Below are positions 5,481 to 11,400 of a stretch of DNA of 64,000 bases, one piece after another (the stretch's first letter is position 1; each line of letters starts with the position of its first letter). The position numbers and the translations under genes were made by a program. Source of the stretch: Bacillales bacterium (lineage in GTDB: Bacteria > Bacillota_I > Bacilli_A > RFN20 > CAG-449); the NCBI GenBank assembly GCA_029006735.1, contig JAQXGN010000022.1, forward strand, positions 9,640 to 73,639. The letters are read 5' to 3'. The notes under the pieces are model-generated. The model made no database searches. It saw only the letters and a program-made list of their open reading frames with translations, and had not been told where the DNA came from.

Positions 5481-8400
5481 ATGTATATGATTGATTATAA
5501 ACAATATCATCTACTACAGTTGTATCTAAACGATAATCTTTATTTGATGTGAAATTTCCAGATGGATTTAAATCTAAGAATGCTGAATAAGTATTTGCAA
5601 TAACAAAGACACGTACATTTACATCATCTGTAATTGTACTTGGAATAGTATAATGAATGTATCCATCACTTTCAGTTGGAATTAAATCATCAACTCCAGT
5701 GATCATAATATTAGACTTTGTATAACCTTTTTCAATCTTAATTCTTATTTCTAATTCAGAATTTGAAATTGTAGTAGCTTGTGCTCTTTCCCAAACACCA
5801 TTTTGTTTCATTTCAATCGAATAACCAACACCAGTTGAGAAAGTAACAACATATTTAGCTTCTTCAAATACAGGATATAAGACTAATGGTCCATCTAATT
5901 CTTTCAAATCGATAATTGCACCATCTGAATAATGTTTAGCACCTGTAGTACCACCACCATTTGATAAACTTACTGAATCTTGATAATCAACTGACCAATA
6001 AGCAAAACGTTTTCCTGTAGGAGCGTTATTTCCTAATGATTGATATAAAACAAGAGAAATAACTGAGTCTTTTTCAACAAATTGATTATATGAACCGTAG
6101 TAATAATATTCATAACCTTCAGTTCCACCACTAAATTCATATGGTTGGACAATGTATCCTTTACCATCATGAACTAATGTTGAAACATCAATTACTTTTT
6201 CAGATAATGCTGCTGAAGATAAGACGAAGTAAATACTATCTTCATTGAATGAAGAAGGTACTCCATCTACTTTATCATAATAATTATCATTCTTTAATTC
6301 AGGGAATTCAGCTTTAATATATGTATCTTTATAAATATAGCCGACAAAGTAATTATCTCTTAATGCTGGATCAAATCTTGATAAATCAGCATCTTCATCC
6401 ATTACATAATAAATGATATTTAATCCGTTTGGACCTCCACCATTTAATGATATTCTAAATTGATTTTCGGTAATCTTACCATCACCATTATTTCCTGCTA
6501 GAGATAAATAATTATTCTTTTGATAGTAGGTAGTTGCATCATTATATACAGTTGCTTTCTTGAAATAATAGTATCCACCATTTCTAATTGCAGTTGTAAA
6601 GTCACCTTCTTCAAATGTAGTTGGTCTATATACTGGTGCAACTAAAATTCCATCAACAACAGAACCTTCATCATGTTTAATTGTATATACTTCATCTTCA
6701 CCGACAACAAAGTCAACCTTTCCTTGAGTGACTTCGCTTATATAATAACGGCCTTCTACTGATGTGTCTAATGCATCTTTTTTACTTACTTGAGTATATA
6801 CTCCATTTTCTGCATCATATGTAAAATAATGATAAGAATCAACATATAATTCATCTTTAATTGTTGCTCGTGCATTTATATCATAATAGTATTTTTGATC
6901 TAATTTAACGTTATTTACTTGAGTTAAAATATTTTTACCATCATTATTTGTTAATGCAAAATATTTTTCATTACCTGTAGTATCATATTGATGCATATTT
7001 TCATATTGTTCAGCAGTAACATAAACTCCATTAAATGTATCTTCTAGAACAACTTCAAAAGTAGTATCACTTGTTTTTTTATATAAAGTTCTATTATCTC
7101 TATCTAAATAATAATTAGATTGTCTTCCATTAGAAATAACATAATATACTTTATCTAAAGATACTTCATTTCTTTCAATATATTCATTATTATTTTTAAC
7201 TAATAAAGTCGTGAAATCATTATCAATTAAGTATTTTAAAGAAGTAGAATTATCGACTTTTGTTGGTGATTTATAATATGTTCCATCAAGATACATACTT
7301 TCACCACTTTGTACTTGAACAATAGCTTTATTATCATCAGTTTTACGTAAATAATCAACTAAAGGATCATATTGCTCATTAACAATATTTTTAACACTAT
7401 AATAATCACTTGTCTTAATTAGTTTATAAATTGCTATATATAAATCATTTCCACTAAGTGAATCACTATTAGTGACTAAATCAATGTACTTTTTATATGC
7501 TTCACCATCTTTATAAGATAATTGAGCTGTACTACGATTATTTGAAATATTATCATTATCAATAATACTTAAAAGATTAGAGTATGTAATATAATCATTA
7601 TTATATGTTTTATTTAAATTTTTATAAACGTTAATGACTTGATCATATATTAATTGATTTTCTCCTTGATTTGTTGGATATAAAGTAATTGACTCATTTA
7701 CACCAATACTAGTTCGGACTTTAATATCACCAGTATATTTTTCAGAGTTAGTAACCCGACCATTAGTATACCAAGTATTCTTCTTTAAATCATCTTTTTT
7801 GGCAAATGTAGTAGAATACTTTGTTACCTCACTTTTGTTCCATACTGAAGTACCATAATGTAATTCACTATTGTTAAAATCAACAATCATCAAAGGACCA
7901 TTAGGGAAATTATTATATGCAGCATCTTCAACAATTTTGCCATTATTATCAACCTTGAAAGTTGCAATATATTGGCTATTATTAACATATCTATATACAT
8001 AAACACTATCTACTACTATCCCATCGACATCTTTATTAGCATGATAATTTCCATTCTCATCAAATTCTGCCTTGTAATAAGTTTGATTAGGATCATATGT
8101 GTCATGAACATTAACTTTTGTATAACTATCGCCATTTTTTATTGCTAGACAAGTATAATAATAATACACTCTAAAAGGCCAAAACCCTTCCGTCCTAGAT
8201 CCATATTGATAATTAAGGCCATTTGTTTCTCCATCAACATTATTATAGAAATGTAATTCTACTTCATTTCCATCTTTATCATAAACATTTTGACCTACGT
8301 TAATCTTAAAATAATAGTCACTGAAACCATTCACATATGAATGTGATTTTACTGGACAAGTTTCAACACCTTCATCATCTTCATTTATCTTTCTTTCAAA

Positions 8401-11400
8401 ATATAATTCATTATCTAAAATAACATCACCGATATCTAATATACCTGCATAATTATCACCATTTTTAGTTACTAAAAGTTCACCTTTATCATATTTATTA
8501 GAGATATCACCAATAGTATTTAATTTAGGAGAATTTGTATCCATAGTATAATAAATACCATTAGCCAAATTTGGATTTGCTTCAACATATTTATTATCTT
8601 GTTTTGAATATACTATTCTATCTTCTGCTGCTCCTTTATTGATAATTGTATTTGTAGTACCTGGAACATAATAATATGTATCATTTTTGAGATATTGGTT
8701 TTCTTCGTATGTTAAAGATTGATTAATATCCATTGAATAATAATCGACATCTAATATAGATTTATCATCTAATCTAACTGTTTCATTAGTATAAATAGTT
8801 TCATTATCATCAATAAAATAATAAGCATCTGATAAAGCAATAACATTTACACTTTCATAATGTCCATCAACATATTTGAAATATGATTTAGCTCCATCTA
8901 ATGATGTTAATGTAACAGCTTTACGGTTACCAGCTGCATCTTGGTTAACATATTCAATCTTATAATATCCTGATTGAGGATCAATATAGAATTTATCTAC
9001 CTTAGTATAAGTTTCAGTACCATTATTATTGAAATAAATATAGTATTCTTTTGTATCATCAATTTGAGTACCATATTCAATATAATTTAATGTACCAACA
9101 TCACCGATAACAAATAAACCTGTATTAACAGTTAATTTAGATTCAATAAATACATCGTCACCATTTTCATCTTTCTTTATTACATAATAAGTAATATTTG
9201 GATCGATTGTATCAATTCTATCATCAAATTGTTTCATTACATAATAAGTAACATTTGGGTTAAAAATAGATACTGCAGTTGGAACATAACCACTACCAGT
9301 TTTAATATAATAAGTTACATCTGGACTAAATACATCATCCTTAGTAGTTTCCTGATAATAGAAATATTCTCCATCATTAAAGTTCGATGCATCAACATCA
9401 ACTTGAGTAAAGCCATAATAGTAATATTTTACTGTTGGATCATAAGTATCATCTTTAGTAATCTTATTAAATACATAATAATCTACATCTTTTTCAAAAG
9501 CATTGACCATGACTTCTGATAAAATTGGGTTACCATTTGGATCAGTACCTGTAATAACATAATATGTTTTACCAGAAATTAATTCATCTGTCTTAACAAA
9601 TTCAACTAACTTATCTTTTAATGAATCAAAATTATCACTTGTAACTTTTTCTTGAACATAAACGTTAGTTGCAAAATAAGTTTCATCTTCATTGTAGTAT
9701 TGATTTTGATAATAGAATAAATTAATTGAAGAAGCAGGTAAACGAGTTAATTTTACATATGTAAAGACAAAATATGTATCATCTTGTCTTCTTCTATTAT
9801 CAATAGAATAATCTAAATCATAAACACCTGGTTCAATAGAAGAAATATTGTTAATAACTAAACGATAATATGTTTTTCCACTAACGCAATTTCCTCCCTT
9901 AATTGGTGAATATGATTTACTATCTTTATTGTAATAATAGTAATTATTTTCAGCGACAATTGATTCAAATGGTACTTCAATATAGTCATATAAAGTAACT
10001 TGTTTAATTTCACTGACGACGTTTTCATTAGCATCAGTAACTTTAATTGGATTATTCTCTAATTTAATTGTATTTGGAACAATAAATGTAGAATCGAGTT
10101 TATATTCTTCATATTCATTATTATATTTATTTGTTAATGAATCATAGACAACTTTATTAGCAATATATAAGAAGTAATTTGTTTCACCTTGAACACGAAC
10201 TGCATCACAATTAGAGAAACTTCCATCAGCTGCAGTATCATGGTTATAATAAATTTCTGATCCACAATAATAGATAACATAAGTTCCTGGGAAACAAATG
10301 ATAAATGGTTTCTTTAATAAGGAATTACCATCTTTATCAACGATTCTAATTTCTTGATTTGCTTCAATAGTTGTGACTGTTGTAGTATATACAGAATATT
10401 CAGATTCAATTCCTCCACCAAAGTCATTAACCCAAAGCATTGATAATTTTTTATCACCAACAATAGCATAGAATTCATTTGTTTGCTCTTTAAAGGAAAT
10501 AGAATATGCATTACCTGTTGAAGCAATATTCTTAATATTATTTGAATCATAATCTATATTAATATAAGAACCATCAAAAATAGCTGCAGGTGAGAAAGTA
10601 ATTTCAAGGAATTCTTTATTAGATAAATTACATCTAGTATCATCCCAATTTTTGATTACTTCATGATATTCATCTAAATTCATATTCTCAATTGCAGAGA
10701 AGTATAATCGATATGTTTTTTCCTCTTCAGATAATCCTACTGGAGTATAAGAATAAGTCTTACCTTTATAAGAGACTCTAATAGTATAGTTTTGCGCTAA
10801 AATGATATCAGCATAGAATTGTGTTCTATTAAATGTTGATTGTAAAGAATATGTAGCTGAAACTAATCCATCAGCTTTAGAAACTAAAACGATTGAATTA
10901 TTTAATTCCGTATCTGTTGTATCAACATAAGGTAATGTATACTCAACAATTCGGCCAATTTTACCATTTGCAGTAACTTGTAATGTAACTAAATATGAGC
11001 CATTTTTACCAACAATTAAAGCTTGTGAAGCATTTGCAACATAGTCCCAAGAATAATCTTGATTTAATGTATATGATTTTCCTTGCCAATCATAAATCAA
11101 TACTTGTTGACCTACGTCTAATTGAACGTCTTCTGCGAAGAAACGATCATTTTTAACATCATATAATAAGCCCGCTAAATTAACAGACCAGTTTTTATTA
11201 CTTCTGATTGTGTATAAATACTCAGTTCCATCATTATAAAGATATGCATTATTATCAGAATTCTTAGCAACCTCTTTATTAACAATTTTTGGTGTGAAGA
11301 AAATACAACCAGTTGCTTTAACTTGTTCAGTAATTGTAAATGAAAGTGGAACTGTAGTTTTTACACCTACCTCATCACTTGTACAACTAAAGACAACTTT

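Follow-up and report, generated by a model that had tools for sequence, protein, structure and literature searches.

A tyrosine-pair hairpin repeat in a putative giant surface protein of a Bacillales bacterium and two sister species

What kind of sequence repeats a pair of tyrosines dozens of times within a single protein, and does it belong to any described family? The question is raised by a giant gene on the minus strand of a 64,000-nucleotide stretch of Bacillales DNA (hereafter the window), drawn from the assembly of an uncultured Bacillota bacterium with a small genome (G000; 1.49 Mb in 65 contigs, with a G+C content of 28%). A reading of this stretch from sequence alone had described in the gene a tract of about 1,000 amino acids (aa), exactly periodic at 60 nucleotides (nt), bearing the motif D-P-x-x-T-Y-Y and lacking an obvious family. 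We find that the tract holds an undescribed hairpin repeat that is real and lineage-specific, though only loosely periodic and of modest novelty, and that the repeating element is a super-repeat some 40 aa long, best seen through comparison with orthologous proteins from two sister species of the same genus (G006 and G007).

Tyrosine pairs and their spacing

The gene and the part of it that concerns us here are as follows; residue i of the giant protein corresponds to window nt 15684-3(i-1).

1..15684, minus strand: giant open reading frame, starting at 15684 and running past the window start, with 5,228 aa inside the window
6085..9984, minus strand: zone enriched in Tyr-Tyr pairs (the YY zone), aa 1901-3200, delimited by YY counts and without a Pfam, NCBIfam or PDB match

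Tyrosine pairs are far more frequent in this zone than its composition predicts. There are 42 YY dipeptides between aa 1901 and 3200 against an expectation of 18.8 +/- 3.8, and none of 5,000 shuffles reaches that number (p < 2e-4). Outside the zone the N-terminal flank carries 17 pairs where 17.2 are expected, while the C-terminal flank, which is made up of Flg_new repeats, carries 4 where 17.1 are expected. Tyrosine as such does not account for the difference: it makes up 12.1% of the zone and 9.6% and 8.8% of the flanks, yet neither flank shows an excess of pairs.

The individual motifs on which the sequence-only reading relied are all present. The peptides GKTYYV, DVDYYVF, DPTVKYYYYGF, GEYFYYQE, SPDVTYYIK, NPNVTYYVM and DPNITYYVI are found on the minus strand between 9582 and 9127 (aa 2035-2186), and the further D-P-x-x-T-Y-Y copy placed at 8041-8100 corresponds to YDPNQTYY at 8100-8065. 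The exact period of 60 nt does not hold, however. In the core tract, successive YY pairs are separated by 28, 20, 20, 16, 22 and 19 codons, and Tandem Repeats Finder detects no DNA repeat of such a period. Autocorrelation of tyrosine positions does show a peak at lags of 19-20 residues and a second at 38-40, but only inside aa 2030-2190. Nor does the repeat fill about 1,000 aa: of 30 gaps within aa 1900-3210, only nine measure 14-26 residues, against 5.9 +/- 2.1 under random placement, and the zone is broken by a non-repeat element that is conserved (aa 1950-2030) and by a YY-free block (aa 2561-2750). YY spacing across the whole zone of the G000 protein is thus no more regular than chance; the regular array spans about 150 aa (seven half-units), the remaining copies being degenerate.

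The unit seen through orthologues

A profile hidden Markov model (HMM) built from the seven units of the window found no further significant copies, and a single-sequence seed of 35 aa likewise failed. Profiles built from the orthologues worked, so that the repeat is definable only through them. The orthologous giants are 6,296 aa (G006) and 6,459 aa (G007) in length, and in each a zone rich in YY occupies the same relative position. Their alignment has an overall identity of only 26-33%, but its YY columns are invariant, and tyrosine accounts for 38 of the 87 invariant columns compared with about 12.6% of residues. Regular spacing is evident in both sister species, with 21 YY gaps of 14-26 residues in G006 (7.2 +/- 2.3 expected) and 22 in G007 (8.7 +/- 2.6 expected), and aa 3183-3545 of the G006 protein consist of nine consecutive units of 37-42 aa each.

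The unit that emerges is a super-repeat of 36-42 aa made of two related but unequal half-units, with the consensus [YF]-[DS]-[PS]-x-x-[T]-Y-Y-x-x-x-x-G-x-Y-x-x-V-x(4-6)-F-x(2-4)-T-Y-Y-[YV]-x(8-10). Each half-unit opens with [FY]-polar-[PSD]-x-x-T-YY; the long one, of about 21-25 aa, carries a G-x-Y-x-x-V return strand, and the short one comprises about 15-17 aa. What had been taken for a uniform 20-aa repeat is therefore the average of a long and a short half-unit within a true unit of about 40 aa. An HMM of the super-repeat identifies 14 units at 25-46 bits, whereas 200 shuffles of the window zone that keep its YY pairs in place score 7 bits or less. A profile trained solely on the YY contexts of the orthologues gives 51 bits on the window zone and 5.1 +/- 3.3 bits on YY-keeping shuffles, and the motif therefore extends beyond the tyrosine pair itself.

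With this definition the YY zone of the window can be divided into the following parts, all on the minus strand.

9850..9948, minus strand: isolated super-repeat upstream of the core tract, aa 1913-1945 (NNYYYYNKDSKSYSPIKGGNCVSGKTYYRLV), aligning with a unit of the G006 orthologue that scores 39.8 bits
9757..9828, minus strand: conserved non-repeat element GVYxLxYSxDxRRRxDDxYFVFTY, aa 1953-1976, interrupting the YY zone and recognised by a run of invariant columns when the orthologues are aligned
9127..9582, minus strand: core regular tract, aa 2035-2186, seven half-units (3.5 super-repeats) of [FY]-[DSN]-[PS]-x-x-T-Y-Y, from the profile, the orthologues and AlphaFold
8605..9063, minus strand: degenerate super-repeat array, aa 2208-2360, whose register agrees with that of the core tract and of the orthologue arrays, profile score at most 4.2 bits
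8065..8166, minus strand: isolated degenerate unit, aa 2507-2540 (YYYYTCLAIKNGDSYTKVNVHDTYDPNQTYYK), containing YDPNQTYY, from the profile
7435..8004, minus strand: YY-free block, aa 2561-2750, with no YY in 190 aa despite 10% Tyr
6565..7365, minus strand: degenerate super-repeat array, aa 2774-3040, matching in position the very regular nine-unit array of G006

Two super-repeats of the core tract score strongly (33 and 45 bits), with YY columns that are invariant in the orthologues. The copies outside it (aa 1913-1945, 2208-2360, 2507-2540 and 2774-3040) are degenerate and align in register with the orthologue arrays. The conserved RRR/YFVFTY element is the only part of the zone common to two shorter, paralogue-like proteins of 1,912 and 2,221 aa from other members of the genus (G012 and G005). 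The YY-free block is probably a separate inserted domain; it also holds the few Trp residues of the zone.

Is this unit a divergent member of a family already described? Searches with hmmscan against Pfam gave nothing above cut-off for the YY zone, for the core tract alone or for the zones of both orthologues, in keeping with the absence of an obvious family that had been noted from the sequence. The YY zone likewise gave nothing above cut-off against NCBIfam, its Pfam and NCBIfam scans contained no enzyme or binding-domain signature, and neither a sequence search nor a search with the super-repeat profile found a match in the PDB. A literature search on tyrosine-rich hairpin repeats returned nothing relevant. 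Several sub-threshold matches were considered and not accepted. The best of these in bit score, a TseB/PepSY-like profile (PF17881), reached 20.2 bits against a cut-off of 26.5 (E 6e-4) and covered 17 residues (aa 2039-2055) and 17 of 45 profile positions; the others were the EBNA2_N dimerisation hairpin (Pfam E 0.005, Foldseek probability 0.21), CBM77 (E 0.006) and BamE. All four are short hairpin coincidences.

Two families deserve closer comparison. The choline- and cell-wall-binding repeats (CW_binding_1, PF01473), including the short clostridial CROP repeats, are like the YY repeat in that each hairpin is about 20 aa long, a strand carries a conserved YY and the units stand in tandem in Gram-positive surface proteins. 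The YY repeat differs in lacking a G-W or G-x-W core and any match to the family HMM, in the alternation of long and short units that generates a super-repeat of about 40 aa, and in the position of the tyrosine pair, which stands at the start of the first strand, after [FY]-D-[PS]-x-x-T. The exclusion of this family, already suspected from the missing core, is borne out by the profile searches: no hmmscan match was found at E <= 10 in the YY zone, the core tract or the orthologue zones, and a six-frame search of the G000 genome with PF01473 was empty at E <= 0.01, although the same model matches in two control genomes. The composition around 104 YY sites agrees, giving [FY]-[DSN]-[PS]-x-x-T-YY with no conserved G or W in a zone that is nearly free of Trp. 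The RHS/YD repeats (PF05593) resemble the YY repeat in their period of about 38-42 aa, in their Tyr-Asp turns (YDPxK in the YY repeat) and in their beta-hairpin character. They too can be set aside: the G-R-L or YxYDxxGR core is missing, hmmscan and a six-frame search of the G000 genome were empty whereas three control genomes match, and the YY protein has neither an RHS core nor a toxin tip, its arrays being far too short for a shell.

Structure prediction supports the hairpin part of the earlier proposal of a beta-hairpin solenoid, but not the solenoid. A first AlphaFold run (531 aa, three sequences) gave a predicted local distance difference test score (pLDDT) of 36.6 and placed strands at 13 of 19 YY pairs; its model was unusable for a fold search. 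The second run was restricted to aa 2035-2186 and used a 15-row alignment of orthologues plus paralogous arrays cut into non-overlapping, in-register windows (sliding, overlapping windows were dropped since MAFFT aligned these by identity and not by register). Mean pLDDT rose to 64.9, with 81-86 in the first super-repeat, and the predicted template modelling score (pTM) was 0.36. The strands in this model are YYVITGT / PILSEV (a hairpin), YV, FYYQE, YYIKT / GYVPT (a hairpin), YYVMK and YYVIKKD / VFIESKLT (a hairpin). Across the two runs a strand thus starts at nearly every YY pair, while the low pTM gives no support to a solenoid or other regular packing. A Foldseek search of the second model, itself weak, against the PDB gave a best E of 0.94 and a template modelling score of at most 0.27, with no choline-binding structure listed. 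The superhelical beta-beta solenoid of CW_binding_1 is not recovered for the YY repeat in this low-confidence model.

Architecture of the giant protein and spread of the module

The complete giant protein comprises 5,408 aa, its stop lying 541 nt past the window edge (contig C22:9099-25323). From the N-terminus it consists of a hydrophobic signal or anchor, a heterogeneous stretch of about 1,900 aa, the YY zone and a C-terminal Flg_new array. The only Pfam match in the N-terminal 1,900 aa or so is a sub-threshold one, to LRR_5 (BspA-type) at aa 166-254. The features surrounding the YY zone are given below.

1..6084, minus strand: Flg_new (Listeria-Bacteroides) array, PF09479 and TIGR02543, distinct from the YY repeat
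15728-17011, minus strand: upstream gene of 427 aa with YY hairpin motifs, E 0.0017 against the super-repeat profile
17038-19560, minus strand: upstream gene of 840 aa with YY hairpin motifs

The Flg_new array, of about 2,200 aa, is matched by PF09479 at E 1.3e-66 in 14 stretches. Flg_new shares with the YY repeat its place in the same giant protein and a presumed role as a stalk element, but is an unrelated module of about 70 aa from a known family, with a G-Y-x-F-x-G-W signature and a paucity of YY (4 against 17 expected). The two do not intermingle: no Flg_new or TIGR02543 match is found in the piece aa 1901-3100, which contains the originally described tract (aa 1989-2995), and matches come only from the piece aa 3001-5228. 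The C-terminus of the protein (...YVKMRKN) shows no LPXTG motif, hydrophobic anchor or other recognised anchor. With its length of 5,408 aa, N-terminal hydrophobic signal or anchor, Flg_new array and YY arrays, the protein has the layout of a fibrillar adhesin. Judged on these features it is most likely a fibrillar surface protein, fibrillar adhesins being a functional class and not a sequence family.

Both upstream genes encode secreted proteins with similar-looking N-terminal hydrophobic signals and no Pfam match. YY motifs within them include RFYYVKDGNTYKLT, NKEYYVA and KYYYQDGSATGASFTKVDV.

How widely is the repeat distributed? The genomes covered were 31 from the family, 401 from the order (70 genera) and about 400 from the class or phylum; the samples at order and class level together comprise 801 other genomes. 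Arrays were seen only in three species of one genus, namely G000, G006 and G007. A scan of GTDB contigs recovered only the G006 and G007 orthologues, and a scan of JGI metagenomes yielded no relatives. Among 5.8 billion word-indexed protein clusters, aa 1901-3200 matched only itself, and neither the three-species tract profile nor the regular G006 array matched anything. A search of 1.84 billion representative proteins with aa 1901-3100 failed to recover even the query and is uninformative, as that library seems not to contain the giant protein.

Single copies of the unit have a different distribution. In G007, a lipoprotein of the ApbE family (L038, G007:C10:19494-19598) carries a 44-aa in-frame insert that corresponds to exactly one super-repeat. 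The insert is missing from the G000 orthologue (contig C6, ORF C6_-2_16110), leaving a clean alignment gap, and shares 46% identity with the first unit of the giant protein in G007. Recent copying from the giant gene was considered and rejected: there is no DNA similarity between the two, and the insertion is therefore not recent. As a clean, one-unit insert absent from the G000 orthologue, it indicates that the repeat unit acts as an insertable mini-module. Another single copy lies in an S41-peptidase lipoprotein of G007 (L040, G007:C2:218016-218108). Outside the genus, one is found in a type IV pilin-like protein with an N_methyl motif from another family (YDPSKTYYEIKNGEY...), and two in small secreted proteins with TasA-type-looking signals from other families of the class (these three loci are L019 in G263, L018 in G348 and L020 in G268). 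The matches outside the genus have E values of 3.5e-5 to 1.5e-3 per genome, with about 400 genomes searched. Transketolase-like matches in G423 and G809 were discarded as false positives.

A proposed stalk and its alternatives

What might such a zone do? The reading we favour, and to which we give about an even chance of being correct, is that the YY zone is a beta-rich stalk or spacer of three-stranded modules of about 40 aa held together by tyrosine ladders. In each half-unit, about 20 aa long, a beta-strand would begin with the invariant Tyr-Tyr pair. The long half-unit would form a hairpin (T-YY-x-x-x-x-G-x-Y-x-x-V), to which the short half-unit would add a third strand (F-x-x-x-T-YY-x-x), yielding one module. 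Stacked tyrosines would make cross-strand aromatic ladders, and these would hold thin beta-sheets without a hydrophobic core, so that the arrays, stiff and extended, would space the N-terminal domains away from the 2,200-aa Flg_new array. We infer the stalk role from position and composition. It is supported by the placement of the YY zone, flanked on one side by heterogeneous N-terminal domains and on the other by a long Flg_new array as in fibrillar adhesins, and by the confinement of YY enrichment to aa 1901-3200. Support comes also from the invariant YY columns and the equivalent position of the zone in both orthologues, from the strands starting at YY and the hairpins of the long half-units in two AlphaFold runs, and from the lack of an enzyme or binding-domain signature. 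There is precedent for such an arrangement in single-layer beta-sheet stalk modules, namely the G5-E modules of SasG and Aap and, in Borrelia, OspA together with its tyrosine-ladder mimics, where thin three-stranded sheets without a hydrophobic core are held by cross-strand contacts and form rigid rods. The mechanism proposed for the YY repeat is the same, though the likeness is functional and hypothetical: there is no sequence, Pfam or Foldseek match to G5, and unit length and motif differ.

Three observations weigh against a stalk. Most copies in G000 are degenerate and the zone is broken by non-repeat blocks; with a pTM of 0.36 and pLDDT of 36-67 past the first unit there is no confident tertiary model; and single copies inside enzymes and a pilin-like protein are poorly explained by a pure spacer role. 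The first two of these bear on whether there is a defined fold at all. The YY excess might be a by-product of an AT-rich genome, in which Tyr, Asn, Lys and Ile are common, acting on a fast-evolving region that is partly disordered or composed of unrelated beta domains. A genomic G+C content of about 28%, whole-zone spacing no more regular than chance, scores below 5 bits for most G000 copies and low AlphaFold confidence beyond the first unit are what this explanation would lead one to expect. It does not, however, account for flanks of similar tyrosine content that show no YY excess, for YY columns that stay invariant in orthologues at about 30% identity, for a profile score of 51 bits against 5.1 on YY-keeping shuffles, or for the 21 and 22 gaps of 14-26 residues in G006 and G007 where 7-9 are expected. 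We regard this explanation as already disfavoured and distinctly unlikely.

The third observation, the one least well accommodated by a spacer, concerns the single copies, which hint at a function of the module itself. One such function is binding. Exposed YY pairs on successive hairpins might form aromatic pockets for a glycan or cell-wall polymer, as in choline-binding and CROP repeats, and serve in anchoring or in the binding of host or dietary glycans. The half-unit of about 20 aa is aromatic-rich and hairpin-forming, arrays in surface proteins with single copies in other extracytoplasmic proteins are how wall-binding modules are distributed, and the giant protein, whose C-terminus has no LPXTG or recognised anchor, would fit such a role. 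Yet PF01473 has matches in the control genomes and none in that of G000, the G-W and G-x-W-YY cores are missing, Foldseek gave no choline-binding or CROP match (from a weak model), and a lone copy within an enzyme is unusual for multivalent binding repeats. A ligand-binding array is on balance doubtful. A bolder possibility is that the module is a homotypic docking tag, such that the secreted enzymes, pilin-like protein and TasA-signal-type proteins with a single copy zip by beta-strand pairing onto the arrays of the giant, which would act as a scaffold. The clean 44-aa insert in the G007 ApbE lipoprotein, absent from its G000 counterpart, invites this idea, as do the copies in the S41-peptidase lipoprotein, the type IV pilin-like protein and the small secreted proteins, and the motifs in the two upstream genes. 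In G000, however, the module shows only in the giant protein and, weakly, in its 427-aa neighbour, and the matches outside the genus are single copies whose significance is modest given the number of genomes searched; we consider such a tag very unlikely. Extended to its limit, the module of about 40 aa would be an autonomous, insertable mini-domain whose arrays in the giant and whose single copies, in secreted enzymes, pilin-like proteins and matrix proteins, would recognise each other by beta-strand zippering, giving a cohesin-dockerin-like assembly of the surface matrix in small-genome Bacilli, and this is the least probable of the proposals considered here.

The arrays have a narrow spread, in three species of one genus, and the repeat therefore has little to tell about biology at large. 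Repeats that no database describes nevertheless make up much of the giant surface proteins of uncultured bacteria, and the YY repeat is cleanly defined in its motif, unit length, conserved tyrosines and beta-hairpin propensity, so that it could seed a new family model. The occurrence of a module of 35-44 aa as single in-frame insertions in unrelated extracytoplasmic proteins suggests, moreover, a self-contained mini-fold, which may serve in rigidity, binding or docking.

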